Shown here piece after piece: positions 2,488 through 24,726 of a stretch of DNA of 64,000 bases; position 1 is the first letter of the stretch; the number at the start of each line of letters is the position of its first letter. The translations under genes were made by a program, and so were the position numbers. Below the pieces are notes generated by a model that worked only from the letters and a program-made list of their open reading frames with translations, was not told the origin of the DNA and searched no databases. The stretch spans positions 8,857 to 72,856 of the forward strand of contig JBBSET010000008.1 of NCBI GenBank assembly GCA_038239485.1, written 5' to 3'. The DNA is from Propionibacteriales bacterium (GTDB lineage: Bacteria > Actinomycetota > Actinomycetes > Propionibacteriales > Nocardioidaceae).

Positions 2488-2515
2488 AGCAACTCCTATC
2501 GACGATCCGTGTGCA

Positions 2516-3972: not shown

Positions 3973-4029
3973 CGCTGTCCCTCCGGAGCATTGCCGGACC
4001 CGATGAGGGGCCAGGCGGCATCTCGATCG

Positions 4030-6202: not shown

Positions 6203-6206
6203 GGGA

Positions 6207-8246: not shown

Positions 8247-9463
8247 CCCGCCTGCTGGCCGCCGACCCGCTCGGCCACGATCTTCTCCGCATACCCCGAC
8301 CCCGCATAGGCCCGCATCGGATCGGGGTCGAGGCCCTGCTCGGTCCGGAGCTCCGCCAGCAGCGGCCTCACGTCGGTGTTGTAGGCGTCCATCAACACGC
8401 CGTGGGCACCCAGCACATCACCGGCCGACTGCGCGGTCGACAACGCATCGGTGTCGACCAGCAGTGCCTTCGCGGTCGCCTCCTGGACATTCATCACCGA
8501 CCGGATCTGACCCGGGATCTTCGGCTCGATGTTGTGACACTGGTCCAGCATGAACGCGATCTGCGTCTCGGAATCGAGCCCGCCGGCCGTCACCACCTCG
8601 AACAGGATCCGGAACAGCTGGAACGGGTCGGCTGCACCCACGATCAAGTCGTCGTCGGCATAGAACCGCGAGTTGAAGTCGAACGCCCCCAGCTTGTCGG
8701 CGCGCATCAGGAACGCCACGATGAACTCGATGTTGGTCCCCGGCGCATGATGGCCTGTGTCCACGCATACCTTCGCGCGCTCGCCCAACGTCAGGCAGTG
8801 GGCGTACGACGTCCCCCAGTCCGGCACGTCCATCGTGTAGAACGCCGGCTCGAACAGCTTGTACTCCAAGATCAGCCGCTGATCGCTGCCCAACCGGCCG
8901 TACACCGCCGACAGCGCCTCGGCCAACCGGTCCTGACGGGCCCGGATGCTGTCCTGGCCGGGATAGTTCGTGCCGTCGGAGAACCAGAGCTTCAGGTCCC
9001 GCGACCCGGTCTGGTCCATCACGTCCACGCACGCGAACAGGTGGTCCAGCGCCTTGCGCCGCACCTGCGGGTCGGGGTTCGTGACGCTGCCCAGCACGTA
9101 GTCGTCGTCCTGGAACACGTTGGCGTTGATGGTGCCCAGGCGGATGCCCTGGTCACGCGCGGCCTCGCCGAGGAGGGCGTAGTCGTCGACGACGTCCCAC
9201 GGGATGTGCAGCGCGATGCTCGGCGCCACCCCCGTATAGGCGTGGACCTGGGCGGCGTCGGCGATCTTCTCGAACGGGTCGCGCGGCACGCCCTTCTGAG
9301 CGAACACCTTGAACCGCGTGCCCGAGTTGCCGAACGCCCACGAGGGCAGCTCGATCTGCTGGCCGCGTAGTACGTCCTTGACTCCGTTGGCGTCGACCAC
9401 CGGCGAACCTTCTTTCGAGCTCATGTGTTGGTGTGGAGGTTGGGGCGGGTCAGCCGTTGTCAC
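8234..9463 (-). CDS. rhaI: L-rhamnose isomerase (actinobacterial / Pseudomonas stutzeri type)
   Basis: 409 aa with the motif ELPSWAFGNSGTRFKVF and a xylose-isomerase-like TIM barrel. The GTG at 9463 overlaps the upstream stop (GTGA) and has GAGGT 6 nt upstream. An alternative ATG lies at 9424. Confidence 0.85.
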   Translation of the reverse strand: MTTADPPQPPHQHMSSKEGSPVVDANGVKDVLRGQQIELPSWAFGNSGTRFKVFAQKGVPRDPFEKIADAAQVHAYTGVAPSIALHIPWDVVDDYALLGEAARDQGIRLGTINANVFQDDDYVLGSVTNPDPQVRRKALDHLFACVDVMDQTGSRDLKLWFSDGTNYPGQDSIRARQDRLAEALSAVYGRLGSDQRLILEYKLFEPAFYTMDVPDWGTSYAHCLTLGERAKVCVDTGHHAPGTNIEFIVAFLMRADKLGAFDFNSRFYADDDLIVGAADPFQLFRILFEVVTAGGLDSETQIAFMLDQCHNIEPKIPGQIRSVMNVQEATAKALLVDTDALSTAQSAGDVLGAHGVLMDAYNTDVRPLLAELRTEQGLDPDPMRAYAGSGYAEKIVAERVGGQQAGWGA

Positions 9464-10914
9464 GGGGCGACCTCGACCAGGTCGGTGCCGAGCAGGTCTG
9501 CGGCGGCCCGCAGCTCCGGGAGCAGGTCACCGATACCCAGCGCCCAGTGATGCGAGATCCCGGTGGCACTCCACTGGTCGGTCCACTCGCCCGGGTCGCA
9601 ACCGAAGTCGACTCGCGAGGTGGTGTTGCCGATCTGGAGCAGTGGGCCGGGGACGACGTTGCCCGTAGACGCCACGAAGCGATAGGACCCGTCGCGCTGC
9701 TGCGCGATCCCGAAGGTCGTCACCGGGCCATGCCGCACGTCGAACTCGACCGACACACCCCAGCCGCGTTTGCCGTGGTAGACGCCCAGCCCCCGCAGCA
9801 GCGGTCGGCCGTCGCTGATGGCCAGATGCGCGGGGCCGTCGTGGCCCATCTCGACGACGCCGTCGTCGAAGTTCAGCGCCTGTAGCTCGGTGAACGAGCC
9901 GCCGCCCCCGAGCCGGTCGACGACCAGCATCGCCAACGACGTCCGCAGCTCGTACTCGCCGACCGCTGGGACTCCGCGGGCGGTGAGGAGGGAGGCGCCG
10001 AGGATCATGCCCGCTCCGAGGCGCTCGTGCTGCTCGCCCTCGAGTCCGCGGTGGTAGTAGGCGAGGCTGTCGAGGCCGAAGTCCTCCACCAGCTGGTCGA
10101 GGCCGAGCGAGACCTTGGCGCCCCAGCGGAAGTCCTCGGTCCGGACGGTCCCGTCGAGCTGGAAGACCTCGCGGGCGAGCCCCATCCGCTGCTCGACCTC
10201 CTCGTCGGTGACGGCCGCGACACGCACCCGCAGGTCGTCGAACTCGAGCACCTCCATGTGACCGCCGAAGTTGGCTGTGACCAGGGTGAGGTCGGTCGAC
10301 ACGTCGAGCATGCCGGGGTACAGGTGGCCCATTAGCCCGTGCCGCCCGTGCCGCAACACCCCGCGCACACCGGCGGCCTTGATCCAGCGGGCGATCCTGG
10401 CCCAGGCGCGCTCGTCGTCGAGGTATCCCGACACCGACCGGAACGGGATCCCGCACCGCAGGAACGCATTGGCCATCTCCGGCACCGGACAGGCACCGCA
10501 GTACGCCAGCCACTGGCCGGTGTCGAAGCTGGCGTGGTCCATCGACGTCGTGGGCTGCAGGTTGATCAGCAGCATCGGCGCGTCGCTGCGCTGGGCTACG
10601 GGAATGAGCATCGAGGCGGTCATGTAGGTCGTCAGGAACCCGACGATGAGGTCACAGCCCGCCACGCGAAGCTGCTCCGCGGCGCGGGCGCCGTCCTCGG
10701 CGTCGGAGATGAAGCCGACGTCGACGACCTCGCAGTCCATCGCCTGGATCCGCTCGGCGACTCGCCGGCTCGACGCTTGGAGCTGGGGAAGCAGGTCGGG
10801 GAACTGGGGCCAGTAGGCGCCGAGACCACCGGCGACGAGTCCTACCTTGGTCGTACGGCCGGTGACACGGGTCAGGCCGGAACCTGATGTCGCCGTCACA
10901 GCGGGGTCGGGCAT
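9460..10914 (-). CDS. L-fucose/L-arabinose isomerase family protein
   Basis: 484 aa. The N-terminal region (KVGLVAGGLGAYWPQF...) and the overall length fit the arabinose/fucose isomerase superfamily. The gene is embedded in the rhamnose operon. Confidence 0.7.
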   Translation of the reverse strand: MPDPAVTATSGSGLTRVTGRTTKVGLVAGGLGAYWPQFPDLLPQLQASSRRVAERIQAMDCEVVDVGFISDAEDGARAAEQLRVAGCDLIVGFLTTYMTASMLIPVAQRSDAPMLLINLQPTTSMDHASFDTGQWLAYCGACPVPEMANAFLRCGIPFRSVSGYLDDERAWARIARWIKAAGVRGVLRHGRHGLMGHLYPGMLDVSTDLTLVTANFGGHMEVLEFDDLRVRVAAVTDEEVEQRMGLAREVFQLDGTVRTEDFRWGAKVSLGLDQLVEDFGLDSLAYYHRGLEGEQHERLGAGMILGASLLTARGVPAVGEYELRTSLAMLVVDRLGGGGSFTELQALNFDDGVVEMGHDGPAHLAISDGRPLLRGLGVYHGKRGWGVSVEFDVRHGPVTTFGIAQQRDGSYRFVASTGNVVPGPLLQIGNTTSRVDFGCDPGEWTDQWSATGISHHWALGIGDLLPELRAAADLLGTDLVEVAP

Positions 10915-10922
10915 TGGCGCTC

Positions 10923-11288
10923 CTACGCGGTCTGCTCAGCGCCGGCCGAGTCGGCTGAGGCGAGCTGGTCGTCGAGGTTGAAGATCTCCTGCAGTGGGCG
11001 GACGGCCTTGTCCGGCCCGCCGTCGTCGAGGCCGACGAAGAACCGGCTCATCTCCGCCTGCCACCGGACATTGACGTCGGTGGCGGCCATCGCCTGCTGA
11101 GCAGCGTCGAGGTCATCGGCCTCGACGTATCCCACCAGCAGGCCGTCCGAACGGGCGAAGAGCGAGTAGTTGCGCCAGCCGCTGTCTCGTAGCGCAGCCA
11201 GCATCTCCGGCCAGACCGCAGCGTGCCGGTCCACGTACTCGTCGAGCCGCTCCGGCCGGACCTGCAGCAAGAAGCAGTACCGCGCCAT
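10923..11288 (-). CDS. rhaM: L-rhamnose mutarotase
   Basis: 121 aa reading MARYCFLLQVRPERLDEYVDRHAAVWPEML...GWRNYSLF, the classic RhaM signature. Confidence 0.9.
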   Translation of the reverse strand: MARYCFLLQVRPERLDEYVDRHAAVWPEMLAALRDSGWRNYSLFARSDGLLVGYVEADDLDAAQQAMAATDVNVRWQAEMSRFFVGLDDGGPDKAVRPLQEIFNLDDQLASADSAGAEQTA

Positions 11289-11321
11289 CAGGGGTGTTCC
11301 TCACATCACGTTGGGGGGAGT

Positions 11322-11358
11322 GGCTGCCGGCCGCCACCGAGGTGACGGCCGAGCAGCC
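11322..11358 (-). promoter_or_regulatory. Intercistronic GC-rich stem-loop just downstream of the binding-protein gene
   Basis: Arms GGCTGCCGGCCG and CGGCCGAGCAGCC form a 12-bp stem with one bulge around a 12-nt loop. The structure begins 10 nt after the rhaS stop and has no U-tract. It could act as a partial terminator or mRNA-stabilising structure, as is common after SBP genes in ABC operons. Confidence 0.3.
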
Positions 11359-11368
11359 GCTCAGTCGG

Positions 11369-12448
11369 TCAGAAGTTGAACTTGTCGATGTTCGACTTGT
11401 CGAACACCGTGGGAGGGCCGAGCACCACCGAAGGGCCGGTCTCGCCAGCGGGCGCGAGCACCTTGTACGTGCCGAGGTGGCCAGCCTTGAAGGAGGAGTT
11501 CGCCTGCAGGCTCGCGGATCCGGAGGCGAGGCTGGCGGCGGCGTAGCCCGCGAGGTAGCCGAGGTCGCTGGGGTTCCACAGCTCGAACGCCGTGACCGTC
11601 CCGTCCTTGACATACGTCTTCATCTGCGACGGCAGTCCGAGCCCGGTGAGGGTCAGGTGGCTCAGCAGGGACTTGTGGCTGTCGAGGTACTGGGCGGCGG
11701 TGGAGATGCCGACCGTTGTCGGCGAGATGATGCCGCGCAGGTTCGGGTAGGCCGACAGCAAGCCCTGGAGCACCGTCAGGGAGGTTTGCGGGTCGTCATT
11801 GCCGTAGACGGTGGTGACCAGCTGCATCTTGGGGTACTTCTTCAACTGCTCCTTCATGTACCCGATCCAGGCGTTCTGGTTCGTCGCGCTGGCTGCCGCG
11901 GAGAGGATCGCGATCTGACCGCTGCTGTTGATCTCCTTGGCCAGCAGGTCGACCTCGGAGGTACCGATGGTCTTGGTGTCCGCCTGGTTGATGAACAGAT
12001 GGCTCGGGCTGGACCCGCAGCTGATGTCGGAGTCGAAGGCAACGATCTGGATGCCGGCCTGGGCAGCCTGGTTGAGCTGCGGGCAGAGCGCCTTCGGGTC
12101 GTTGGCGGCGATCACGATCGCGTCGGCCTTGGCCTGGATCGCGGCCTGGATCGACGGCAGCTGCGCAGCGGCGGTGTCTTGCGTACCGCTGCTGACGACC
12201 ACCTTGCCACCGAGCTCCGCCAAAGCGGCCTGGCCGCCCTTGTCGGCCAGGACCTCGTAGGGGTTCTGGGTGTCCTTGGGGATGAAGTAGACGGTGAGCC
12301 CTGACTTGATTCCCGTCCCCGTCGCCGAGGCAGTCGGGTTGGTTGCCGAGTTCTTGCTGGACGAGCTGCACGCTGCCAGCGACAGGCTTGCCACCACTAC
12401 GGTGGCGACGGCAAGCGTCGTGTGGCGCGTCAGACGGATTCTGCTCAT
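11369..12448 (-). CDS. rhaS: Rhamnose ABC transporter substrate-binding lipoprotein
   Basis: 359 aa with a signal peptide and lipobox (LSLAACSSS). It has a periplasmic sugar-binding fold with YFIPKDTQNPY. Confidence 0.85.
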   Translation of the reverse strand: MSRIRLTRHTTLAVATVVVASLSLAACSSSSKNSATNPTASATGTGIKSGLTVYFIPKDTQNPYEVLADKGGQAALAELGGKVVVSSGTQDTAAAQLPSIQAAIQAKADAIVIAANDPKALCPQLNQAAQAGIQIVAFDSDISCGSSPSHLFINQADTKTIGTSEVDLLAKEINSSGQIAILSAAASATNQNAWIGYMKEQLKKYPKMQLVTTVYGNDDPQTSLTVLQGLLSAYPNLRGIISPTTVGISTAAQYLDSHKSLLSHLTLTGLGLPSQMKTYVKDGTVTAFELWNPSDLGYLAGYAAASLASGSASLQANSSFKAGHLGTYKVLAPAGETGPSVVLGPPTVFDKSNIDKFNF

Positions 12449-12501
12449 GCTAGTGAGGCCTTTCGTGAAACCGATGGTGTGGAGACGTGTCTGTGACGGA
12501 C

Positions 12502-13569
12502 CTACGCTGCCGAGCGAGACCGGCCGCGCCGGACTCTGGCTCGGAGTCTGCCGATGACCTCACCCCCGTTCGGGATGACGACGCTGAGCAGCAGGAGAAT
12601 GCCGGTGATGATGTTCTGCTTCTCTGGCTGCACCTGCATCTGCGTGAGCGCCATTTGAAGGCTCCCGATGATGGCGACCGACAGCACGACCCCAAGGATG
12701 GTGCCGCGACCACCGAAGATCGAGACACCGCCGAACAGCGCGATCGCGACGACGTTGAGCTCCAGGCCCACTCCGGCGTTGTAGCTCACTGACGAATTCT
12801 GCAGCGTGAGCAGGATGCCGGCGAACGCGCTCAGCAGACCAGAGAGGACGAACAGGCCGAACTTGATCCGGGTCACCCTGATCCCGGCGAACTCCGCTGC
12901 CTCCGGCTGGAGCCCGATGGCGACCATCGACCGGCCTAGCGGAGTGGCGTGCAGGACGACGCCGAACACCATGGCGAGGATCAAGAAGATGAGGAGCGAC
13001 CACGACAGCTCCGTGCCGCCGACCGGCAGCACCCCGATGTTCGTCAGCGAGACGGGGAACAGCCGGTCGCCGATCCCTGGGACGGTCACGGACCCCAGCA
13101 GGATCTCCGCCAGCCCGCGAAACAGCGTGAGCGTGCCGATGGTCACGGCGATCGAGGGCAGTCCGAACCTGGCCACGAGCAGGCCGTTGAGCGCGCCGCC
13201 GGCGAGGCCGACCAGGAGCGCCACCCCGAAGGCCGGCCAGATCCCCCAGCCGTGGTGCCACAGGTCCCCGACCACGGCACCAGACAGGCCGAGCATCGAC
13301 GCCACGGAGAGGTCGATCTCGCCCGTCATGACGACGAAGGTCATCGGGAGGGCCATGATCGCGATGTAGCCGATGTTGATGCCCATGAAGAAGAGGGTCG
13401 AGGAGGTCAGGAAGACCGAGGACTCGGCGGCACCGAAGATGAGCACGCCAAACAGGACGACGAGCAGGCCGGTCTCCCAGCGCGCCACGCCGCTCCAGAG
13501 CCGGCGCGCGCCGGAGTCGGCTGCGGGCGCATCCACCTTCGGCGGCGTCGGGGTCATCACGTCAGACAT
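12502..13569 (-). CDS. Sugar (rhamnose) ABC transporter permease
   Basis: 355 aa polytopic protein of the BPD/ribose-type permease family. It overlaps the upstream permease by 8 nt. Confidence 0.85.
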   Translation of the reverse strand: MSDVMTPTPPKVDAPAADSGARRLWSGVARWETGLLVVLFGVLIFGAAESSVFLTSSTLFFMGINIGYIAIMALPMTFVVMTGEIDLSVASMLGLSGAVVGDLWHHGWGIWPAFGVALLVGLAGGALNGLLVARFGLPSIAVTIGTLTLFRGLAEILLGSVTVPGIGDRLFPVSLTNIGVLPVGGTELSWSLLIFLILAMVFGVVLHATPLGRSMVAIGLQPEAAEFAGIRVTRIKFGLFVLSGLLSAFAGILLTLQNSSVSYNAGVGLELNVVAIALFGGVSIFGGRGTILGVVLSVAIIGSLQMALTQMQVQPEKQNIITGILLLLSVVIPNGGEVIGRLRARVRRGRSRSAA

Positions 13570-14602
13570 TGCGGTGCGCTCCTTCAGCCGACGCCAGTTT
13601 CCGGGCGTTGCGCAACGTCAGCCATCGGTCGAAGGCGATGGCGGCCAGCAGGAGTCCGCCCGCGATCGCCCCGTTCCAGAAGGCAGAGATCCGCAGCGCG
13701 ACCAGTGCCTGCTGGATGGTATGGAGCAGCACCGCTCCTAGAGCAGCACCGACGACCGTGCCGCTGCCGCCGAAGATCGCGACACCTCCGACGACCACGG
13801 CAGCAATGACCTGGAGCTCGTAGCCTTGCCCAGCACTGTTGTCGACCTGCGCGTTGAGGGCCAGGAAGAGAGCCCCGGCGAGGCCGGCGAGCGTGCCGCT
13901 GATGACGAAGGCGGCGAAGACCCGCCGGGTGGCCGGGATACCGATGAGTGCGGCGGCGGCGGGGTTCGAGCCGATGGCGTAAAGGTCCCGGCTGGCGCGG
14001 TAGCTCCGCATCGCGTAGGCCGCGACGACGACGACCCCTGCGACGATGATGAACAGCCATGGGACGCCGAGAAGGTTCTGGTACCCGACCGCCGTGAACG
14101 AATGTGGGATGGCGGTGGGGTTGACGATGTGCCCGTTGACGATGACCCCGTCGATGCCGCGGACGATGTAGAGCATCGCCAGCGTGACGACGAGGCTCGG
14201 CACCCGCATGACAGTGGTGATGAAGCCGTTGACCGCGCCGATGCCGGCGCCGACCGTCATCGCGATGAGGAAACCGGACCAGGCCGGGATGTGCTCGTGC
14301 TTGAACAGGTCACCCACGATGTAGGCCGACAGGCCGAGCACCGAGCCTACCGACAGGTCGACATTGCGGGTGACGATCACGAGCGTCTCGCCGACACCGA
14401 GCAGGGCGATCAGCGCGGCGCCGGAGAGGAGCTGCTGGATGCTGTTGGCGCTGAGGAAATGGTGGTTGTCGAGACTGGTCAGTCCGACGAGCACGACGAT
14501 GAGCAGCCCGATACCGGCCTCGCGGGCCCGCAGCAGGTCGACCAGTCGACTGGTTCGGGGCTTGTCGACGTCGGCGGCCGGCTCGACGGTCCGGGTGCTC
14601 AT
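13562..14602 (-). CDS. Sugar (rhamnose) ABC transporter permease
   Basis: 346 aa polytopic protein of the same permease family. It has a 4-nt overlap with the ATPase gene. Confidence 0.85.
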
Positions 14603-16122
14603 GCTGCCGCCTCGTCGGTGCTGGCCATCGTCGCCGCCCGCATGATCAGGTCGTCGGTCGCCTGGGCTCGGCTGAACTCACCGGTGAGCCGTCCCTCCCG
14701 CAGGACGAGGACCCGGTCGGCCATCCCCAGCACCTCGGGAAGCTCCGAGGAGATCATCAGGACTGCCATGCCGTCGCTGACGAGGCCGTCGAGGATGCGG
14801 TGCACCTCGGCCTTCGTCCCGACGTCGATCCCCCGGGTCGGCTCGTCGATGATCAGCAGCTTGGGGGCTCGGGCCAGCCACTTGCCCAGAACGACCTTCT
14901 GCTGGTTGCCGCCGGACAGCGTGGAGACGGCGTTGCGAAGCCGGCCGAACTTGAGCTGGAGCCGGCCCGCCCACGTCATCGCCAGCTCCGCCTCGCTGGA
15001 TCGCCGGATGATGCCGAACGAGCTCAGCGGGTACAGCGACGCGAGCGCCATGTTCTGGTCGATCCCCATGTCCATGACCAGCCCCTGCTGTCGACGGTCC
15101 TCTGGCACCAGCGCGACCCCGGCGGCCATCGCCGACTGCGGGTCACCGTTGGGGAGCTCCGATCCGTGAAACCGCACGGACCCGCCGTCGTGGCGGTCGA
15201 TGCCGAAGACCGCACGGGCGACCTCGGACCGGCCGGCCCCGACGAGCCCGGCGAGGGCGACGATCTCGCCGCGGCGCACCGTGAACGAGACGTCCTTGAA
15301 CTTGCCGAGACTGGTGAGCCCCTGCACCTCGAGGATGACCTCGCCGGGCTCCGTGACCGTCTTCGGGAAGAGCGACTCCAGGTCACGCCCCACCATCAGC
15401 CGGATGATCTGGTCGACGGTGATCTCCTCGATGGGAGCCGTGTGGACGAAGCTGCCGTCGCGCATCACGGTGACGCGCTGGCAGCAGGAGTACACCTCTT
15501 CCAGTCGGTGGGAGATGAACATCACGGCAGAGCCCTGGGCACGCAGAGTGCGGATGACGACGAAGAGCCGCTCGACCTCGGTGGACGTGAGGGCGGCCGT
15601 GGGCTCGTCCATGACCAGGACGCTGGCGTTGAGCGACAGCGCCTTGGCGATCTCGACGATCTGCTGGTCTGCCACCGACAGGGCTCGAGCGAGCCGACGC
15701 GGGTCGAGGATGACCCCGAGCCGCCTGAAGATCGCCGCCGCCTCGCGTTCCATCGCGGCGCGGTCGATTCGGCGCCGCGCACCGAGTGGCTGGCGCCCGA
15801 CGAAGATGTTCTCCGCCACTGTCAGGTCGGCGAACAGCGACGGCTCCTGGTAGATGATCGACACGCCGGCATCGCGTGCCGCCGCCGGGCCGGTGAACAC
15901 GACGGGGGCGCCGTCGAGGAGCAGCTCCCCCGAGTCGGGGTAGTGCACACCCGCCAGGATCTTCACGAGGGTCGACTTGCCGGCGCCGTTCTCGCCGAGC
16001 AGCGCGTGCGCCTCTCCCGGATACAGGGTGATGCTGCCGTCGACCAGGGCAGCGACCGGACCGAAGCTCTTGGCGGCCTTCGAGAGCACCAGGCGAGGAC
16101 CTGTGTCGTCGTCAGTGGTCAT
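14599..16122 (-). CDS. Sugar (rhamnose) ABC transporter ATP-binding protein with duplicated ATPase domains
   Basis: 507 aa with two ABC cassettes: Walker [10 protein letters not shown], a LSGGNQQK signature and Walker [11 protein letters not shown]. Confidence 0.9.
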
Positions 16123-16203
16123 CTCGTCCGTCCTGCCAGCTGGGTCGTGGCTCCGTGGTCCGTTCGCGTCGTGTGACCAGGCGCGGACTGCGGTAATTGC
16201 GTG

Positions 16204-16215
16204 TGAAACCTTTCA
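16204..16215. promoter_or_regulatory. Candidate LacI-family operator TGAAAC-CTTTCA
   Basis: Near-perfect palindrome (5 of 6 bases per half-site) in the 258-bp divergent region between the rhamnose operon and the LacI-family gene. It resembles the generic LacI/GalR operator core TGnAAnCGnTTnCA. Confidence 0.4.
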
Positions 16216-16380
16216 TTCCGGGAAACTGTAAGGTGCGTCACAGTCCGTGTCAAGGGGGTGTGACGATCTTGTTACCATCTGCAGCCTGCGCCCAGATGTC
16301 GTCGCAGAGTGTCAGATACAGCTGCCTGTGGAGTGGGCAGGAGTACCCTCCGATTGAGACGATCAAATCCGTGGCAACTG

Positions 16381-17409
16381 ATGGGAATGCCTATGATCGA
16401 GCCGGCCAACGTCCTCGACGTGGCCGCTCATGCCGGCGTCTCAGTCGGCACGGTCTCCAACGTCATGAACCGGCCGGAGCGCGTGTCGCCCGCCACCCGA
16501 GAGCGCGTGCTGGCGTCGATCAGCGCCTTGGGGTACGTCCGCAACGAGGCTGCCCGCCAGCTCCGGGCCGGCAAGAGCCGGACCATCGGGTTGGTCGTGC
16601 TCGACATCGGGAACCCGTTCTTCACCGATCTGGCTGCAGGTGCGGAGGTCACGGCCACCAAGCACGGTCTGACGCTGATCCTGTGCAGCAGCAACGACGA
16701 CGTGCACCGCGAGTCCCACTACCTGAGCCTGCTGCAGGAGCAGCGCGCGTTCGGCATCTTGATCACTCCGGTGGCACGCACGAACACCGCGATCCAGCAG
16801 CTTCGCCGGCGCGGGACGCCCGTCGTCCTCGTGGACCGGACCGCCGGGCGCCGGCAGTGCTCGGTATCGGTCAACGACCGGCTCGGCGGCGAGCTGGCCA
16901 TCGACCATCTGGTCAGCCGCGGACATCGCAGGATCGCCTTCGTGGGAGGTCCGATGTCGATCAACCAGGTGGTGGAGCGGCTGGCCGGGGCGCGGGCGGC
17001 GTTGCGGGCGGCCGACCTACCCGACGACGCACTGACGGTCATGGAGACTCCCGCCCTCAATGTGGCCGCCGGCCGTTCGATGGGGGCCGAGATCGTGGCG
17101 CTGCCGGCGCCGGGCCGCCCGACCGCGGTCTTCTGCGCGAATGACCTCCTCGCGCTGGGGGTGCTGCAGGAGATGACGCGGAGCAGGCTTCAGGTGCCGG
17201 GCGACATCGCGATCGTGGGGTACGACGACATCGACTTCGCTGCAGCGGCCGCGGTACCACTCACGTCCGTGCGACAACCTCGGGCCCAGCTCGGCCTGGC
17301 CGCGATGGACCTGCTCATCGAGGAGGGGCTCGCACCCGACGAGCACCAGCATCGTCAGGTCGTTTTCGAGCCCGAGCTCGTGATTCGCGATTCGACGGGC
17401 CATCCCTGA
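16381..17409 (+). CDS. LacI family transcriptional regulator (probable rhamnose operon repressor)
   Basis: An N-terminal HTH (NVLDVAAHAGVSVGTVSNVMN) is followed by a periplasmic-binding-protein-like sugar-binding domain. The ORF track starts at 16309, but the HTH position favours ATG at 16381, 16387 or 16393. Confidence 0.85.
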   Translation: MGMPMIEPANVLDVAAHAGVSVGTVSNVMNRPERVSPATRERVLASISALGYVRNEAARQLRAGKSRTIGLVVLDIGNPFFTDLAAGAEVTATKHGLTLILCSSNDDVHRESHYLSLLQEQRAFGILITPVARTNTAIQQLRRRGTPVVLVDRTAGRRQCSVSVNDRLGGELAIDHLVSRGHRRIAFVGGPMSINQVVERLAGARAALRAADLPDDALTVMETPALNVAAGRSMGAEIVALPAPGRPTAVFCANDLLALGVLQEMTRSRLQVPGDIAIVGYDDIDFAAAAAVPLTSVRQPRAQLGLAAMDLLIEEGLAPDEHQHRQVVFEPELVIRDSTGHP

Positions 17410-17727: not shown

Positions 17728-18132
17728 GTGGTCGCAGGTCGATTGCCGGTGGACGACGACATCGCGGCCGTGCTCGTGACGATCAGCGAGCCCGGGGCCG
17801 ATCCGGAGCGCCTCGACGAGCTCACGTTGATGCTTCGTGGCGAGCTGATGGAGATTGCCGCCGACGTCCGGCCTGTGTCGGGTGGCGAGGCGCCCCCGGG
17901 TACCCGGGCGATCGACATCGCGACGGTCGGTGCGCTCCTCGTCGCCGTCAAGGGGTCGGTGGAGTCGGTCAACGCCATCGTGTCGGCGGTCCGCTCCTGG
18001 CTCCGGCGCGGGACCACGCCGCGCGTCGTCGAGCTGACGATCGCCGGTACGACGCTGCGCCTCGACGCCGCGAGCGAGCAGCAACAGCAGCAGCTTGTCG
18101 ACGAGTTCGTACGCGCCGTCCGAGCTGGCTGA
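17728..18132 (+). CDS. EACC1-like (effector-associated constant component) small protein
   Basis: 134 aa from GTG 17728, with GGGAGG 6 nt upstream; the ORF track starts at TTG 17710. The layout is an acidic helix (ERLDELTLMLRGEL), then PPGTRAIDIATVGALLVAVKGSVESVNAIVSAVRSWLRRG (hydrophobic hairpin ending in WLRR), then VVELTIAGTTLRLDAAS and a C-terminal helix. This matches my recollection of the EACC1 family found next to caspase or trypsin effectors. Confidence 0.6.
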   Translation: MVAGRLPVDDDIAAVLVTISEPGADPERLDELTLMLRGELMEIAADVRPVSGGEAPPGTRAIDIATVGALLVAVKGSVESVNAIVSAVRSWLRRGTTPRVVELTIAGTTLRLDAASEQQQQQLVDEFVRAVRAG

Positions 18133-18138: not shown

Positions 18139-20370
18139 ATGGCCAACCAACGCAAGGCCCTCGTCGTCGCGACCGACCGCTATGCGGACCCGTCGTTGCG
18201 GCAGCTCGCGGCGCCCGCCGCGGACGCGGCGGCGCTCGCCGAGGTCCTGTCGGCACCTGATCTCGGCGCGTTCTCGGTCGACCTGCTGACCAACGCCCAG
18301 TCCTGGGAGGTCGACGGGGCGGTCGAGACGCTCTTCACCGAGAGCGACGCCTCAGACCTGCTGCTCCTGCATTTCTCCTGCCACGGCATCAAGGACGAGC
18401 GCGGCGAGCTCTTCCTCGCCGCGAGCAACACGGTCCCGAACCGGCTGATGTCGACCGCGGTCGAAGCCGCTCAGGTCAGTAGGCTGATGCAACGCAGCCG
18501 GGCCCAGCGGATCGTGCTGTTGCTGGACTGCTGCTACGGGGGGGCCTTCGAGCGTGGCATGGTCGCGCGGGCGGCGGGCGACGTGGACGTGGCCGACCAG
18601 TTCTCGCAGACATCGCTTGCGGCGGGGCGCGGTCGAGTGGTGATCACCTCGTCCAGCGCGATGGAGTACGCCTTCGAGGGCGCCCAGCTGACCGACAGCC
18701 GCAAGCCCACGCCCTCGCTCTTCACCGGTGCCCTGGTCGAGGGAATCCGCACCGGCGAGGCCGACCGCGACCAGGACGGCCAGGTCGCGCTGCACGAGCT
18801 GTACGACTACGTGCACGACAAGGTCCGACAGCAGACCCCGAACCAGACACCGAGCAAGTGGGAGTTCGGCGTCCAAGGGGACTTGTTCGTCGCTCGGAAC
18901 CCGCGCCGTCGCATCGTGGCCGCGCGGCTGCCGACCGAGCTGGTCCGGCTGACTGAACACCCCACCACGCCGATGCGGCTCGCCGCCGTTCTCGAGCTCG
19001 AGCAGCTCGCGGTCGGCTCCGATCTCCCCGTGGCTGCCGGAGCGCGCGTCAGGCTCGGCGAGCTCGAGAACGACGACAGCCGCCGGGTGTCCCTCGCGGC
19101 GACGGACGCCCTGCGCCGAACCTCGGTCCGGGTCACTCCCGAGGCCGTCGACACGGGTGAGGTGGCGTCCGGGCAACCCGTGCATCTCAACGTCAAGGTT
19201 GAGGGAAGCCCGCTCGCGCTCGCTTCGGAGGTCAGCTCGTCGCTCGAACGCCTCGACGCCCGCATCGAGGGCCACACCCTGCGCATCTCGGTCCGAACTG
19301 CCGAACCCGGGCCCCTCGACGGAGCCATCCGGCTCAGCGGACCCGCCGGCGAGGCGAGCGTCACGATCCGCGGCGTCGTCGTCGCCGGCGCTCGGACCCC
19401 GACCCGAACCCTGCTCACCGAGCCCACGACGACCGAGCCCAGAGCCACCCGGCCGACTACGACCGAGCCCACCACGACCGAGCCCACCACGACCGAGCCC
19501 ACCACGACCGAGCCCACCACGACCGAGCCCACCACGACCGAGCCCAGGGCCACCGACCAGCAGGCCGGCGTGGCAGGCAACCGTGAGCTCGCCGCGGTAC
19601 TCATGGTCGCCGGTTCGGTGGCGATGGCGCTGTCGTTCATCCTGGTGGGCAGCGGGGCTCTCGCTGACTCGTCGAACAATCTGCACATGAACCCGTCAAC
19701 CAGGAATGTCTGGCTGCTGGGACTCCCGATGGCCGCGTTCGCCGCAGCGCCGCTGCTCTTCCGTCCCGGCATCAGCCGCTCCCACGGGATCGCCGTCGCT
19801 CAGGGGATCGCGCTCGCGTCAGCACTGTGGAGCTGGGTGCTCGTCGTCCGTGTCGTCGTACCAGCGATCTACGTCGACGGGCTTGGGACGACCCTGCGGG
19901 GTATCTTCGTCACCGCCCTCTGGCTCCGCCTGCTCGCCGCGGTGGCCTTCACCCTCGTCAGCGCGGTTCTCGTCGAGCGGTCGGAGGCTGCTCGGGTGCC
20001 ACCGCGGCTACGCAGCGACGCACGCGCGCTGCTCGGCGCGGTCATCGTCTTGGGCGGTGCCATGGTGCTCCCGATCGGGCTCCAAAGCGATGGGTACACG
20101 GCCGCCCAGGTCGCGGGTGGCTGGGCGCAGGCGGCAGTCTTCTGGGTGGTGATCCTGCCGCTGGCAGTCATCCGGCTCACGCCGGCTCAGCGCGAGGCCG
20201 TACTGATCTTCATCGTGGCGTTCACCGTCTTCGCCGGAGCACGAGCGGTCAGCGTGTCCGGCAGCCACGGCTTCTTCCAGACGGCAACCGGTGCCGGTCT
20301 CGTCATGCTCGCCTGCCTGCTCATCGGTATCGCTGTCAGCCAGGTCCCGACGGGCGCCCGGACGCCATGA
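18139..20370 (+). CDS. Caspase-family (peptidase C14) protein fused to a helical repeat, a beta-rich segment, a TTEP tandem-repeat linker and a ~8-TM C-terminal membrane domain
   Basis: 743 aa. The catalytic dyad context is LLLLHFSCHG (His82, nt 18382-18384) and VLLLDCCYGG (Cys131/132). A DRDQDG EF-hand-like loop and a HEAT/ARM-like segment (RLAAVLELEQLA...DDSRRVSLAATDALRR) follow. The TTEP repeats span aa ~430-470 and eight hydrophobic helices run from aa ~483 to the end. The gene starts 6 nt after the EACC1-like stop. Confidence 0.85.
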   Translation: MANQRKALVVATDRYADPSLRQLAAPAADAAALAEVLSAPDLGAFSVDLLTNAQSWEVDGAVETLFTESDASDLLLLHFSCHGIKDERGELFLAASNTVPNRLMSTAVEAAQVSRLMQRSRAQRIVLLLDCCYGGAFERGMVARAAGDVDVADQFSQTSLAAGRGRVVITSSSAMEYAFEGAQLTDSRKPTPSLFTGALVEGIRTGEADRDQDGQVALHELYDYVHDKVRQQTPNQTPSKWEFGVQGDLFVARNPRRRIVAARLPTELVRLTEHPTTPMRLAAVLELEQLAVGSDLPVAAGARVRLGELENDDSRRVSLAATDALRRTSVRVTPEAVDTGEVASGQPVHLNVKVEGSPLALASEVSSSLERLDARIEGHTLRISVRTAEPGPLDGAIRLSGPAGEASVTIRGVVVAGARTPTRTLLTEPTTTEPRATRPTTTEPTTTEPTTTEPTTTEPTTTEPTTTEPRATDQQAGVAGNRELAAVLMVAGSVAMALSFILVGSGALADSSNNLHMNPSTRNVWLLGLPMAAFAAAPLLFRPGISRSHGIAVAQGIALASALWSWVLVVRVVVPAIYVDGLGTTLRGIFVTALWLRLLAAVAFTLVSAVLVERSEAARVPPRLRSDARALLGAVIVLGGAMVLPIGLQSDGYTAAQVAGGWAQAAVFWVVILPLAVIRLTPAQREAVLIFIVAFTVFAGARAVSVSGSHGFFQTATGAGLVMLACLLIGIAVSQVPTGARTP
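19426..19545 (+). repeat. 15-bp in-frame tandem repeat (ACCACGACCGAGCCC = TTTEP): five perfect copies (19471-19545) plus about three degenerate copies upstream
   Basis: Read directly from the sequence. It encodes EPTTTEPRATRPTTTEPTTTEPTTTEPTTTEPTTTEPTTTEP between the soluble and membrane parts of the caspase protein. Confidence 0.95.
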
Positions 20371-22208
20371 GAATGCCCTGGCGGTCGAGAACACCACGCG
20401 AGCCGAGGTCGCGCTACCGGTCCAGCCTGCTGTGGCGCGTCTACGACGGGGTGTCGACGTGGGCCGACCGCCAGCGCGGCTGGGACCGGTATCCGCTGCC
20501 GATCGGCCTGGCGGTGCTGATCGGGCTTCGCAACGAGCTGCGCCGCCACAACCTGCACGACACGAACCTGCTGCCGACGGTCGATCTGCCGCCGCTGGGC
20601 CCGCCCCCCGGCGACGACACGACGCGCACCGTCGACGGCAGCTACAACGACCCCCAGTCGCCGCGGACGGGGATGGCTGGTGCTCGCTTCGGCCGCAATG
20701 TGCCGCTCGACCGGGTCACTGCCGACACCGCCGCCACGATCCTCGACCCGAACCCGCGAGAGGTCAGTCGGCGCCTGCTCACGCGGCACGAGTTCCAACC
20801 CGCGACGTCCATCAACGTCATCGCGGCCGGCTGGCTGCAGTTCATGATCAAGGACTGGTTCAGCCACGGTCCCGGCGACGCCGACAAGCCGTGGCGGCTG
20901 CCCCTGTCAGCAGACGACGACTGGCCACAGCGGCCGATGCTGGTGCCGAGCACCGTCCCCGACCCGACCAGGCCGGCAGGCTCGGACGGGCCGCCGACCT
21001 TCGCCAACACGCTCACCCACTGGTGGGACCTGTCGTCGATCTACGGCACGTCGGAGCAGGCGCAGGCGGCCTTCCGCTCCGGAACCGACGGCAAGCTGCT
21101 GATAGCACCCGGCGGGATCATCCCGCTGCCGTCCGACGACCCGGCGACCGACCCGACCCGCCAACCCGGGTTCTGGGTCGGGCTGGGCATGCTGGCCAGC
21201 CTGTTCGCGCACGAGCACAATGCGATCTGCGACCGGATCCGGCACGACTTTCCGCGCTGGTCCGACGACGAGGTCTTCGAGCGGGCTCGACTCGTCAACG
21301 CCGCGGTCGTAGCCAAGATCCATACCGTCGAATGGACCCCCGCGATCATCGCCCACCCGACCACCAAGGTGGCGATGCGCGCCAACTGGTTCGGCATCGA
21401 GGGCGAGCGGCTGCACCGCCTCTTCGGCCGGCTCAGCTCGAGTGAGGTGATCAGTGGGATTCCCGGTTCGCCGAGGGAGCAGTACGGGGTCCCGTACTCC
21501 CTGACAGAGGAGTTCGCGGCCGTCTACCGGATGCACCCCCTGCTGCCGGACGACTTCCGGATCAAGACGGCCGCAACCAGCGGACAGCCTCGCGAGCTCG
21601 ACTTCACGCAGCTCGCCGGACCAGCGAGCCGCGAGGTCTTCGGGCAGTCATCGCTGTCGGACCTGTTCTACTCGTTCGGAACCGCCTACGCGGGAGCGGT
21701 GGTCCTCAACAACTATCCGCGCGGACTCCAGCACTTCATCCGCCCCGACAACGGGATGCCGATGGACATCGCCGCCGTCGACATCTTGCGCATCCGCGAA
21801 GGTGGCGTACCCCGCTACAACGAGTTCCGCCGGCTGCTGAGACTTCGTCCGGCGCGGGACTTCGAGGACCTGACCCAGGACACTCGCCTCGCCGCCGAGG
21901 TGAGCGAGGTGTACGGCGGCGACATCGAGAAGGTCGACCTGATGATCGGGCTGTTCGCCGAGAAGCGGCCCGAGGGCTTCGGCTTCAGCGACACCGCCTT
22001 CCGCATCTTCATCCTGATGGCCAGCAGGCGGCTCAACAGCGACCGCTTCTTCACCAGCGACTACGATCCACGGGTGTACACCACGGCGGGAGTGGCCTGG
22101 ATCGACGACGCAACGATGAGCACGGTGCTACGCCGTCACTGCCCTGACCTGGCGCACCGCCTGAATGCCAAGGCGAATGCCTTCCAGCCCTGGCCCGGGA
22201 CCCCCTGA
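20367..22208 (+). CDS. Haem peroxidase-cyclooxygenase superfamily protein, plant alpha-dioxygenase (PIOX)-like fatty-acid oxygenase
   Basis: 613 aa from ATG 20367, which overlaps the caspase stop (ATGA). The ORF-track N-terminal extension from 19827 is spurious. The protein aligns by eye with plant alpha-DOX along its length: YPLPIGLAVLIGLRNELRRHNL, DGSYNDPQSP..GARFGRN, AAGWLQFMIKDW, LFAHEHNAICD, ARLVNAAVVAKIHTVEWTP, MRANWFG and EEFAAVYRMHPLLPD. Confidence 0.85.
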   Translation: MRMPWRSRTPREPRSRYRSSLLWRVYDGVSTWADRQRGWDRYPLPIGLAVLIGLRNELRRHNLHDTNLLPTVDLPPLGPPPGDDTTRTVDGSYNDPQSPRTGMAGARFGRNVPLDRVTADTAATILDPNPREVSRRLLTRHEFQPATSINVIAAGWLQFMIKDWFSHGPGDADKPWRLPLSADDDWPQRPMLVPSTVPDPTRPAGSDGPPTFANTLTHWWDLSSIYGTSEQAQAAFRSGTDGKLLIAPGGIIPLPSDDPATDPTRQPGFWVGLGMLASLFAHEHNAICDRIRHDFPRWSDDEVFERARLVNAAVVAKIHTVEWTPAIIAHPTTKVAMRANWFGIEGERLHRLFGRLSSSEVISGIPGSPREQYGVPYSLTEEFAAVYRMHPLLPDDFRIKTAATSGQPRELDFTQLAGPASREVFGQSSLSDLFYSFGTAYAGAVVLNNYPRGLQHFIRPDNGMPMDIAAVDILRIREGGVPRYNEFRRLLRLRPARDFEDLTQDTRLAAEVSEVYGGDIEKVDLMIGLFAEKRPEGFGFSDTAFRIFILMASRRLNSDRFFTSDYDPRVYTTAGVAWIDDATMSTVLRRHCPDLAHRLNAKANAFQPWPGTP

Positions 22209-22229
22209 CCGCTTTCAGCGCGACCCCGC

Positions 22230-23906
22230 TCAGGTCGGGATGACGCTGCCGCCCGCCGTCGTCCGGTCGCCCACCCGGATGGTGAGACGCGCTGTCGAAC
22301 CCAGCACCGGCAGCTTCTGAGCGACCGCGGGCAGCGGCACCGAGCACAGACGCACACCGTCGACCAGCTCGAACGCGACCGGCGCCCGCTGGTCCGCAGG
22401 CAGCCCGTCGCTGATCGGGTCGAGCTGGTCGTTGACACCGCCGACCTGGCTGACCCAGGCGACCCGCGCCTGTAGGCCCTTGCCGTCCTCGTTGGGACCG
22501 ACATCCACGACCAGCGAGTCGGCCCAGTCGGGGACCTGCTCGAGGTGCTCGGCGAAGCGGAACGCGTTACCGCGCTCCACCAGCTTGAAGACCTTCATCG
22601 TGAGCACGTAGCGCAGCCGCCCGGCGTGGCGCTGAGGAAGCTCGGTCTCACCGCGCTCGCGGGCGAGCTCGGCCTCGTGACCGGCGTCGAGCAGGACTGT
22701 CGTGACCAGTGGCACGGGGGTGTCGGGGGAGTCCACGTGCCGGCGCAGCTCGTCGTTGATCTGGATCGGGCACCAGTGCTCGGCCTGCTGCTCGCTGATC
22801 ACCACCGACATGCCGCGAATGGCCAGCCGGACGTCGGCCTGCCATACCGGCCACTGTTGCTCGGGCGGGAGGTTGCCCATGTCACGCGGGTAGGCAGGCA
22901 GCCCGTCCAGGGCCACGCTGACCTCCCAGCGGCCGAACAGGAACCGACGCAGGTTCTGGTATCCCTCCTCGGAGTTGACCTCCCCGTAGGACCCCGAGTG
23001 CGACTTGTAGACATAGGCGCGATGGGCGCGGCGGACGTACGCGTGCTCGATCCTGACCAGACCGTCGCTCTTCGGCCCGACGACCATGCGCGACAGGCCG
23101 AAGTCCTTCGGGTCGGTGCCGATCAGGCAGAAGATGTCAGACGGAGCGAAGACGGCATCGGGGATCTCTTGGGGGTCCCAGCCGGAGCCGGCCGACGGCA
23201 CGTCCCCGAAGGTCTTGCCCGGCGTCAGGTAGCCATACATCTTCGGCGGCGAGAAGATGTCCGCCCCCGCCGGGCCGAAGGCCTGCTCGGCCCAGTCCAG
23301 CGCCTTCACGTCGAAGGTGATGCCGCCGTGCGGCGTGCCGTAGGTGAAGAGCTTCGCCACCAGCTGCTTGGCCTTGATCCGGCCATCGCTCTCGCAGACC
23401 TTCTGCATCATCGACCGAACCACGAGGCCACCCATGGAGTGCGCCACGAGGAACACCTTGTCCGCACCGGTCTTCTCCCGGACCGTCAGGATCAGGTCGT
23501 ACAGGCCGCTCGCGGCGGTCTCGATGTCGAAGCCATCCGACGTCACCCGCTGGTGCAGACCGGTCCACAGCCGCTCCAGCACCCCTTCGTGCTTCGGCGA
23601 GACGAAGGTGGTTGCCGCCTGGTCGTAGAAGCGGTACACCCACAGCGAGCGCTGCGGGACCGAGCCGTCCGCCGCGTCGTTCAGGTACTGCTGCTGGTCG
23701 CCGCTGACCAGGAGCCGGTAGTTCTCGTCGGTGATGAGCCGAAGCATCGGCCCTTCGAACTGGTAGAACATCGGGTCCCCGTCCCCACCGACCCGCACAT
23801 GGGTGGCGCCGCGGTTGAACCCGTAGAAGGGGTCGTCGACCTGGCTGTCGATGCCGGCTGTCGCCCCGGCGTAGCCGCGCACGTACACGATCGGCAGCCT
23901 GTCCAT
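22230..23906 (-). CDS. Alpha/beta-hydrolase, lipase/PGAP1-like (GxSxG) with a ~290-aa uncharacterised beta-rich C-terminal domain
   Basis: 558 aa with the nucleophile elbow FLVAHSMGGLV, GTPHGG, and HSGSYGEVNSEEGYQNLRRFLFG (probable catalytic His region). There is no signal peptide. The gene converges on the oxygenase gene with a 21-bp gap. Confidence 0.75.
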   Translation of the reverse strand: MDRLPIVYVRGYAGATAGIDSQVDDPFYGFNRGATHVRVGGDGDPMFYQFEGPMLRLITDENYRLLVSGDQQQYLNDAADGSVPQRSLWVYRFYDQAATTFVSPKHEGVLERLWTGLHQRVTSDGFDIETAASGLYDLILTVREKTGADKVFLVAHSMGGLVVRSMMQKVCESDGRIKAKQLVAKLFTYGTPHGGITFDVKALDWAEQAFGPAGADIFSPPKMYGYLTPGKTFGDVPSAGSGWDPQEIPDAVFAPSDIFCLIGTDPKDFGLSRMVVGPKSDGLVRIEHAYVRRAHRAYVYKSHSGSYGEVNSEEGYQNLRRFLFGRWEVSVALDGLPAYPRDMGNLPPEQQWPVWQADVRLAIRGMSVVISEQQAEHWCPIQINDELRRHVDSPDTPVPLVTTVLLDAGHEAELARERGETELPQRHAGRLRYVLTMKVFKLVERGNAFRFAEHLEQVPDWADSLVVDVGPNEDGKGLQARVAWVSQVGGVNDQLDPISDGLPADQRAPVAFELVDGVRLCSVPLPAVAQKLPVLGSTARLTIRVGDRTTAGGSVIPT

Positions 23907-23922
23907 GACAACCTTCTCTCGC

Positions 23923-24618
23923 TCACGCCTCGCGCAGTCTGCGCTCGTACCACAGGGTCGTCACGACGTAGCCGCTGAGGAAGCCGACGACGAAGTAGAG
24001 CACCAGCAAGGACCCGGAGATCACCAGGGCGGTGTCACTGGGCTGGCCAGCGCCCGAGTCCTCCATCCCGCGTGCGACTGCGGTGACGAGGCCGCCGAGC
24101 GGAGCCCCCAGGTGCGTGAGCTCCACCAGGCCGGCGCCCAGCAGGAGCTTGGTCAGCCAGTCGCTGACCTCGGCAAGGTTCGAGCTCTGCGTGAACTGGG
24201 CCACCGGCGCGGACTCGCGGATCTCGAGGCCACCCTGGGCGCCGGACGGCGATGCCGACTCGTCGACCATCAGGCCGCCTTCAGTGGCGGTCGTCGTCCC
24301 TGAGGTCGCAGGGATCGTGGTCGTCGTCGTGGCTGTGGTGTCGGTCTGGGTCTGGGTGACGACTTTGGGGGCGTCGGCCTTGTGCCGGACCTCGCCGGAG
24401 GACACCGCTCGGGGGACGCCGAACAAGAAGCCGAGCAGGCAGCCCGTGACGAAGGCCGCGAATGCGGTCAGCAGGCCGACGCCGAGATAACGGACAGATG
24501 GCCCGGGCGTGGCGAACGCGTAGGCGGCGACCAGGACGAGGCCGACACCGAGCACAGCACCCGCAGTCATGAGCAGCCACTCGCTGACTCTCAAGGACCG
24601 CACCGGCGCCTCGCTCAC
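23923..24618 (-). CDS. Four-TM membrane protein with a Thr-rich central loop, function unknown
   Basis: 231 aa. Two N-terminal TM helices are followed by the low-complexity stretch TQTQTDTTATTTTTIPATSGTTTATEGG, then LAEVSDWLTKLLLGAGLVEL and a final TM helix. It lies 16 nt upstream of the lipase-like gene on the same strand. Confidence 0.6.
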   Translation of the reverse strand: MSEAPVRSLRVSEWLLMTAGAVLGVGLVLVAAYAFATPGPSVRYLGVGLLTAFAAFVTGCLLGFLFGVPRAVSSGEVRHKADAPKVVTQTQTDTTATTTTTIPATSGTTTATEGGLMVDESASPSGAQGGLEIRESAPVAQFTQSSNLAEVSDWLTKLLLGAGLVELTHLGAPLGGLVTAVARGMEDSGAGQPSDTALVISGSLLVLYFVVGFLSGYVVTTLWYERRLREA

Positions 24619-24726
24619 CTCGTGACCCTGTGGTGGGTCCGAAAAACACGATAGGGCTCGCTGGAGGGCGCGTAAAGAGCTGCGTCTAAGAGATCGCCTT
24701 CAGTGTCTGTGAGGGAGGGACGACTG

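Follow-up and report, generated by a model that had tools for sequence, protein, structure and literature searches.

On contig JBBSET010000008.1 of a Propionibacteriales bacterium (Nocardioidaceae; GenBank assembly GCA_038239485.1), a gene for a predicted four-helix membrane protein and a gene for a lipase-like alpha/beta-hydrolase lie side by side directly downstream of bldC. Our preferred reading, to which we give a probability of roughly 45%, is that they form a cassette put together recently, whose membrane protein may dock the soluble lipase at the membrane or regulate it there. It is the membrane docking, the substrate, and the biological role that we infer, whereas the gene structure, the family memberships, the invariance of the triad, the neighborhood statistics, and the presence or absence of each gene among relatives are read from the data. 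The analysis covers 64,000 nucleotides of the contig (positions 8,857 to 72,856; hereafter, the window), high-GC (~68%) actinobacterial DNA from a 3.48-Mb, 107-contig assembly. We call the membrane-protein gene and its product the TM (transmembrane) gene and TM protein, and the product's family the 4TM family. The central features, in window coordinates, are as follows.

22230..23906, minus strand: hydrolase gene, encoding a 558-aa, predicted cytoplasmic, lipase-like alpha/beta-hydrolase with an N-domain (residues 1-325) and a C-domain (residues 326-558); from the open reading frame (ORF), translation, Pfam, homologues, and AlphaFold2 (AF2)/Foldseek
23907..23922, minus strand: 16-nt spacer between the TM and hydrolase genes, with a GAGAAGG ribosome-binding-like motif; from a reading of the sequence
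23923..24618, minus strand: TM gene, encoding a 231-aa membrane protein of an uncurated family; from translation, homologues, motifs, and hydropathy
24648..24676, minus strand: promoter-like element TTTACG-N17-TATCGT in the gap between bldC and the TM gene; conserved in the window and in the relatives L179 and L191
24727..24936, minus strand: bldC, encoding a 69-aa MerR-like protein, the conserved edge of a variable region; from the ORF

The initial annotation of this DNA described two minus-strand genes 16 nt apart, and the coordinates bear this out. Such spacing suggests co-expression, and the TM and hydrolase genes look like a single transcription unit. To judge from the sequences, both ORFs are genuine genes; each has homologues at 80-82% identity, and a large family stands behind each. 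The TM gene starts with GTG for a product of 231 aa, while the public gene call begins five codons further downstream and gives 226 aa. The gap from the bldC stop to the TM start is 108 nt (24619-24726), and our scan agrees with the annotation that it holds no convincing terminator: no hairpin was found in the gap, and the sole match lay inside the TM ORF, at chance level. At the other end, the hydrolase stop faces the stop of a convergent alpha-dioxygenase-like gene across 21 nt (22209-22229), as had been annotated.

Comparison with relatives places the pair in a variable region. The vdh-orf-bldC block is kept in four of five same-genus genomes at 74-84% nucleotide identity (four were examined downstream), with bldC itself 91-94% identical; the fifth genome gives a weaker DNA match. 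The genes 3' of bldC differ in each of the four, and the island genes are in none of them. Being directly downstream of bldC, a position to which the annotation had drawn attention, means lying at the edge of a variable region and not belonging to a conserved regulon in the genus. No mobility genes were found in the island. Beyond the pair, the window carries three genes on the opposite strand.

17743-18132, plus strand: EACC1-like gene, a 129-aa ORF ahead of the caspase gene
18139-20370, plus strand: caspase_w_EACC1 gene, its product with a C-terminal polytopic membrane domain; NCBIfam NF047832, 1.2e-49
20367..22208, plus strand: An_peroxidase gene (alpha-dioxygenase-like), convergent on the hydrolase gene, its start overlapping the caspase stop; Pfam PF03098, 1.4e-98, and gene call

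Four close metagenomic relatives (L177, L178, L179, and L191) are syntenic with the window at ~80% nucleotide identity. In these and all other fetched loci, neighboring genes were called with a GC3-based in-house caller that was checked against the window and may miss small genes. The site downstream of bldC reads as follows.

Window: bldC, TM gene, hydrolase gene, then convergent peroxidase, caspase, and EACC1 genes
L179: bldC, TM gene, hydrolase gene, then the contig end
L191: bldC, hydrolase gene, then a convergent peroxidase gene; TM gene absent
L177: bldC, hydrolase gene, then a convergent caspase gene with EACC1 beyond; TM and peroxidase genes absent
L178: bldC, hydrolase gene, then a convergent caspase gene, inside which the contig ends; TM and peroxidase genes absent

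Counting the window, the site takes four states, across which the hydrolase gene is the constant one, and the TM and peroxidase genes are independent variables. A joint gain or loss of the latter two was considered and rejected: the window carries both genes, L177 carries neither, and L191 carries the peroxidase gene without the TM gene. The EACC1-caspase pair likewise comes and goes at this site among close relatives. As a conserved system, then, the annotated pair does not hold up, having been seen only in the window and L179, while the other three relatives carry the hydrolase gene alone of the two. Since those relatives keep an intact hydrolase gene, the TM protein is, on this comparison, not an obligatory subunit or partner of the hydrolase, nor its antitoxin or immunity factor.

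The same comparison bears on how the TM gene came to its place. An element of the form TTTAC(G/C)-N17/18-TATCGT is conserved in the bldC-proximal gap of the window and L179, where the TM gene comes next, and of L191, where the hydrolase gene does; it scores under the threshold of a consensus scan. Its conservation ahead of either gene suggests that the TM gene sits between the putative promoter of the hydrolase gene and the hydrolase start codon. In L177, the EACC1-caspase pair, followed by Abhydrolase_1 and zf-CGNR genes, adjoins the genes found at window positions 800-3900, and the rhamnose-type sugar ABC/LacI cluster that lies left of EACC1 in the window (4000-17400) is absent there. With the sugar cluster missing from L177 as well, the variable region must extend beyond the five genes.

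The hydrolase is predicted to be lipase-like, as the annotation had proposed, from its invariant triad and from structural matches of its model to the A. fulgidus lipase, family I lipases, and PGAP1. The AHSMGG, GTPHGG, and HSGSYGEVNSEEGY blocks named in the annotation are present at residues 155-160, 190-195, and 303-316. Across a family alignment of 33 sequences (54-82% identity to the query), H156, S157, M158, G159, and G160 are invariant in and around the nucleophile elbow AHSMG (residues 155-159), and Ser157, Asp281, and His303 are invariant in 33 of 33. These three form the predicted catalytic triad, assigned from motif position and order. The A-x-S-x-G variant of the nucleophile elbow is found in Bacillus LipA. 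The triad codons, all invariant in the alignment, are:

23436..23438, minus strand: Ser157, nucleophile in AHSMG
23064-23066, minus strand: Asp281, in SDGLV
22998-23000, minus strand: His303, in SHSG

With Pfam, the hydrolase passes two gathering cut-offs, scoring 26.6 bits for DUF676 (20.3 required) and 26.2 bits for PGAP1 (24.3 required), over residues 125-203 only, and it scores just under the cut-offs of LCAT, Abhydrolase_1, and other lipase families. In a phmmer search of PDB sequences, lipases of Burkholderia and Pseudomonas aligned to it over the AHSMGG...GTPHGG stretch. The AF2 model (predicted local distance difference test score [pLDDT] 72, predicted template modelling score [pTM] 0.78) gave 30 Foldseek matches in the PDB at E<=0.001, mostly lipases and related acyl-ester hydrolases; the matches named included the A. 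fulgidus lipase 2zyr, 2lip, 4gw3, B. subtilis LipA, and PGAP1 (E ~1e-5 to 3e-3, probability 0.93-1.0), and the Tle4-Tli4 complex appeared as a weaker match (E 1.7e-3). A long aromatic N-terminal segment (residues ~13-53) is near-invariant in the family, with residues 20-53 invariant in the 33-sequence alignment, and is left unresolved by the model, in which the conserved segments 13-50 and 95-125 have low confidence.

The likeness to known enzymes is partial. The hydrolase shares with family I lipases (Burkholderia/Pseudomonas, B. subtilis LipA) the alpha/beta core, the AHSMG elbow, and the GTPH(G/R)G block, and with 2zyr an extra beta-rich C-terminal domain. It departs from both in being predicted cytoplasmic, without a signal peptide, in a sequence similarity that extends over only ~65 residues, in query-normalised Foldseek TM-scores of no more than 0.14-0.26, in its long aromatic N terminus, and in a C-domain without a significant structural match. 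Similarly, its resemblance to the DUF676/PGAP1/LCAT families (PF05057, PF07819, PF02450), with DUF676 and PGAP1 over the gathering cut-off at the nucleophile region, takes in about one-third of each profile, and in contrast to them it has no membrane anchor and an unrelated C-domain.

The annotation was also right that the hydrolase lacks a signal peptide: the hydropathy of the N-terminal 45 residues peaks at 0.81, and the whole protein is free of TM-grade segments. Its predicted location is the cytoplasm. The C-domain (22233..22931, minus strand; ~233 aa), which the annotation could not assign, folds as a beta-sandwich when modelled alone (AF2, pLDDT 80.6). An exhaustive phmmer search of 1.84 billion representatives found it fused at the same position in this hydrolase family only (107 clusters at 50% identity), and Foldseek against the PDB returned no match at E<=0.001, so that the domain appears family-specific. 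Its weak best matches, C2 domains and the GM2 activator, are lipid-binding folds; the domain may bind lipid or membrane, an idea that these matches make a lead and not a result.

The hydrolase, which NCBI names "esterase/lipase family protein," has more than 4000 homologues; they are 53-82% identical and come from Micrococcales, Streptosporangiales, Mycobacteriales, Streptomyces, and Actinoplanes. Within a class sample of 401 genomes the enzyme is present in 10, and a search of 60 relatives, including the five same-genus genomes, found no orthologue, only weak alpha/beta-hydrolase matches. Plasmid carriage is essentially absent for either gene (one distant TM match, two hydrolase matches). We looked at ~36 hydrolase loci: 3 from an exact look-up, 20 from GTDB genomes, 9 from the class sample, and the rest from the close metagenomic relatives. 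Outside the window's lineage, none of the ~30 loci has a 4TM gene, a caspase gene, or EACC1 beside it, and only one, L041, has an adjacent peroxidase gene; the co-occurrence of the pair with the EACC1/caspase/oxygenase trio, which the annotation had wanted checked, is not seen in them. The hydrolase gene is usually alone, in ~30 mutually unrelated contexts with neighbors such as TetR, enoyl-CoA hydratases, SDR proteins, flavin monooxygenases, MFS transporters, and a PrsW-like membrane protease. On this distribution the family is widespread but patchy, actinobacterial, and self-sufficient.

One recurrent hydrolase context deserves separate mention. In four related loci (L028:2550-4999, L029:9998-12462, L037:549-2998, and L190:1367-3831), whose hydrolases form a clade at 72-76% identity, an FGase (N-formylglutamate amidohydrolase-family) gene lies downstream and overlaps the hydrolase gene by 4 nt. 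Nearby are genes for an ADP-ribosylglycohydrolase, an MBL-fold protein, Smr, or NrtR.

The TM protein belongs to a conserved, uncharacterised family that, as far as profiles can tell, has no Pfam or PADLOC entry. The annotation had called it a four-helix, Thr-rich protein. Three strongly hydrophobic helices (Kyte-Doolittle >=2.16) and a Thr-rich linker (16 Thr in 68 residues), which forms a variable loop between helices 2 and 3, stand; the fourth helix (residues ~154-182), the best-conserved stretch of the protein, is only weakly hydrophobic (1.37). Among the 461 homologues the core order is two strong helices, the variable loop (0 to >100 residues), a weak helix with polar residues, and finally another strong helix. 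Near-invariant motifs occur at three places: GFLFG(I/V)P..VSSG after helix 2, SNLAEVSDWLTKLLLGAGLV entering helix 3, and GYVVTTLWY at the end of helix 4.

The TM protein itself matches nothing in Pfam, NCBIfam, or PADLOC. In a Pfam scan of 25 family members, none reached any curated cut-off, S-4TM and SLATT-type modules being included in the test; the family profile found nothing among PDB sequences; and two further members without a fused C-terminal domain likewise had no PADLOC match. The family is rare, occurring in 4 of the 401 class genomes. Some members carry two He_PIG Ig-like domains, and these had suggested an extracytoplasmic loop; that idea was dropped, as the domains precede helix 1 and lie outside the loop, and the proteins have no signal peptide. 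A linkage of the family to bldC was rejected as well: Streptomyces homologues lie beside hrpA-like helicase genes, with no bldC within 8 kb. Streptomyces members also carry C-terminal soluble domains. One, in L026 (4107-12609), appears receiver-like from a reading of its translation, unscanned, and its neighbors, read as SIR2-like, FRG-domain, and STAND-TPR NTPase proteins from translations without a domain search, give the locus a defence-island-like look.

The neighbors of the 4TM family elsewhere connect it to lipid chemistry. We gathered 87 loci, which collapse to 61 clusters at 90% identity, 44 of them informative (flanking sequence of >=1.2 kb on at least one side). The most recurrent neighbor is a patatin phospholipase gene, adjacent and on the same strand in 9 loci from 3 clusters, in two gene orders. 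When the TM gene comes first, the gap is -3 to +19 nt, with a 4-nt overlap in some loci, so that the two genes are often translationally coupled; in the other order, a papain-like protease gene lies ahead of the patatin gene. The patatins are identified by Pfam (3e-36 and 2e-31) and weakly match the PADLOC "Phospholipase effector" model (8.5e-12 to 8.4e-9). A distant TM homologue lies beside a fragment of DUF3376, a patatin-associated domain. Moreover, an An_peroxidase gene lies immediately upstream of the TM homologue in the six-gene run of L048, and 3.8 kb from it in L049/L050, past an S8 protease operon. The TM proteins of the window, L048, and L049/L050 are mutually closest relatives (51-66% identity).

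Altogether, a lipid enzyme is adjacent in 6 of the 44 informative clusters, where a rough estimate expects fewer than 0.5; kinship among the loci precludes a formal test. The estimate assumes that far fewer than 1% of genes encode patatins or other lipases and that only 8% of genomes have the peroxidase; with the TM family as rare as it is, the adjacencies stand far above it. The other neighbors are heterogeneous: TIR, thymidylate-synthase-like, Pvc16_N, DUF2252, amidohydrolase, WD40, and CHAT proteins. The TIR-domain gene (L075:1022-1711) and the thymidylate-synthase-like gene each lie on the same strand as their 4TM gene, and the latter, whose product has 224 aa, starts within 20 nt of the TM stop (L083:1134-1808 and L085:6518-7192), with a 4-nt overlap once. 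Taken together, the loci suggest that 4TM genes repeatedly come to lie beside genes for lipid-acting enzymes: patatins, An_peroxidase, and, in the window, a non-homologous lipase. The link to lipid chemistry that the annotation had drawn is strengthened by these patatin and peroxidase pairings and by the hydrolase-peroxidase neighborhood in L041. Our literature searches found no paper linking patatin, a TM protein, and anti-phage operons, and a dioxygenase/lipase search yielded nothing on actinobacterial operons.

In concept, the proposal recalls patatin effectors such as CapV of CBASS, in which a cytoplasmic lipase attacks the cell's own membrane. The window differs from CBASS in having a hydrolase outside the patatin family and no identified gene for a cyclase or another sensor, and the 4TM family is not in PADLOC.

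A possible course of events can be outlined. The four-helix membrane gene would have been inserted, or lost in relatives, between the promoter-like element and the start codon of the hydrolase gene. Its product would reside in the cytoplasmic membrane and, through its near-invariant juxtamembrane motifs, may dock the soluble lipase at the bilayer or regulate it there; the lipase would then cleave acyl esters of membrane lipids to yield fatty acids and lysolipids.

Several observations weigh against a docking cassette. About 38 of the 44 informative TM clusters have neither a lipase nor a peroxidase gene beside them, and the TM and hydrolase genes, seen together in one narrow lineage, could have come to lie side by side neutrally. 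The surroundings of many hydrolase genes have a metabolic look, given the TetR, enoyl-CoA hydratase, and monooxygenase genes in them. The weak fourth helix leaves the membrane topology ambiguous, and the hydrolase model, with its pLDDT of 72 and low TM-scores, is only of moderate quality. The annotation had itself offered two readings, an independent membrane-targeting toxin or defence pair or else the substrate-releasing arm of the neighboring caspase/oxygenase system; neither was borne out, and a PADLOC-DB 2.0 scan matched the hydrolase, like the TM protein, to no defence-system protein model.

The substrate-arm idea, in which lipase and membrane protein free fatty acids that the An_peroxidase oxidises to give an oxylipin or lipid-peroxide output tied to EACC1-caspase, strikes us as unlikely. 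It gains from the established use of free fatty acids by alpha-dioxygenases and from genomic proximity. The hydrolase and peroxidase genes sit next to each other in a single lineage, represented by the window and L191, and also in the independent L041, a Lapillicoccus metagenome-assembled genome in which TetR, hydrolase, and An_peroxidase genes are co-directional, with a 75-nt gap. The TM homologues near a peroxidase gene, in L048 and L049/L050, are the closest kin of the window's TM protein, and in L171 a patatin gene is divergent from the peroxidase gene (1 of 33 loci). Moreover, the peroxidase occurs in three of nine other hydrolase-positive class genomes, against a background of 32 of 401 (~8%), but in all three the genes are on different contigs. 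Further points count against this output. The L041 peroxidase (11731-13539) has a single in-frame stop where its relatives have a sense codon, which makes it a pseudogene or an assembly error; L177 and L178 have the hydrolase without the peroxidase; and in the window the two genes are convergent and not co-transcribed. In the 33 peroxidase loci taken from the class sample, no hydrolase gene, TM gene, caspase gene, or EACC1 lies next to the peroxidase gene, which keeps a set of neighbors of its own.

Of the 33 loci, 17 have one or more genes of this set (e.g., L048:808-6978, L142, L144, L146, and L148). The products are a protein of 140 aa, whose gene is mostly found immediately upstream of the peroxidase gene; two proteins of 422 and 400 aa that match nothing in Pfam; and a Dyp-like protein of 462 aa. 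Genes for an S8 protease, DUF5995, and a protein of 311 aa sometimes join the set, which from its gene content looks like an undescribed haem-enzyme cluster.

Equally doubtful, in our view, is that the hydrolase is an ordinary accessory esterase/lipase for the catabolism of stored or exogenous acyl esters, with the TM gene an unrelated passenger in a recombination hot spot. The ~30 solitary loci with their TetR, enoyl-CoA hydratase, SDR, flavin monooxygenase, and MFS neighbors, the NCBI family name, the lack of PADLOC matches, the variable content 3' of bldC, and an island without mobility genes are all as this explanation would have them. It accounts less readily for a gene so patchily spread (0 of 60 relatives, 10 of 401 class genomes) and yet 53-82% identical across orders. 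An accidental neighbor is also made less likely by the pairing of the 4TM family with patatin, an enzyme of a different fold, and the 16-nt spacing suggests co-expression.

A bolder extension of the docking cassette would make the 4TM family an undescribed, modular membrane partner of lipid-attacking and lipid-oxidising enzymes (patatins, the DUF676-type lipase of the window, and haem fatty-acid oxygenases), with the window's cassette coupling lipid hydrolysis to EACC1-caspase-dioxygenase and producing a lipid-derived death or alarm signal. Such partnerships would represent a new class of small cassettes that combine a membrane dock with a lipid enzyme. We consider this a long shot.

The caspase itself invites another explanation. 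EACC1-caspase is "System 4," a two-gene conflict system, and the paper describing it names neither a peroxidase nor a lipase (Kaur et al. 2020, PMC7159879). More recently, EACC1 was reported to be a caspase-activated pore former, and a ~33-kDa alpha/beta-hydrolase in a caspase operon to be a doubly cleaved zymogen, with two conserved Arg|Gly sites in its N-terminal third; caspase-linked alpha/beta-hydrolase effectors were reported to be widespread in Actinobacteria (Evans et al. 2025, bioRxiv 10.1101/2025.11.14.688446). By analogy, the EACC1-associated caspase might cleave the window's hydrolase and unleash a death effector. The hydrolase gene is convergent to EACC1-caspase in the window, L177, and L178, the membrane-directed death-effector theme is shared, and the conserved low-confidence segments 13-50 and 95-125 of the model could be exposed loops. 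These three loci, however, are one syntenic lineage and one evolutionary event, and ~30 other family members have no protease nearby. The pair also lies on the strand opposite the two-gene core and outside it, and the hydrolase, at 558 aa, differs from the published zymogen of ~33 kDa inside the protease operon. Its invariant R-G pairs are R10-G11, on the first strand, and R364-G365, in the C-domain; set against the published sites by description, their position is not comparable. In L177, a 313-aa Abhydrolase_1 protein encoded directly upstream of EACC1 (L177:14715-15656, minus strand), and absent from the window, fits the role better. Cleavage of the window's hydrolase by the caspase is therefore improbable.

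A toxin-immunity pair in the manner of Tle-Tli or TslA-TilA, to which the adjacent membrane-protein gene and the weak Tle4-Tli4 match might point, is by this analogy the least credible explanation and is largely refuted by the intact hydrolase genes without a TM gene in L177, L178, L191, and ~30 other loci, as well as by a hydrolase with no signal peptide or Pfam secretion-targeting domain and surrounding ORFs among which no secretion-system genes were seen.

Since the hydrolase, TM, and peroxidase genes vary independently in close relatives, the five genes of the window should not be assumed to be one system. If the ordinary explanation holds, the locus is an accessory lipase and a passenger gene in the variable region 3' of bldC, of modest interest. 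If the 4TM family proves to be a dedicated partner of lipid-acting enzymes, a conserved, uncharacterised membrane family would gain a name, and its members would help in learning by what means bacterial alpha-dioxygenase-like haem enzymes and cytoplasmic phospholipases are brought to their membrane substrates.

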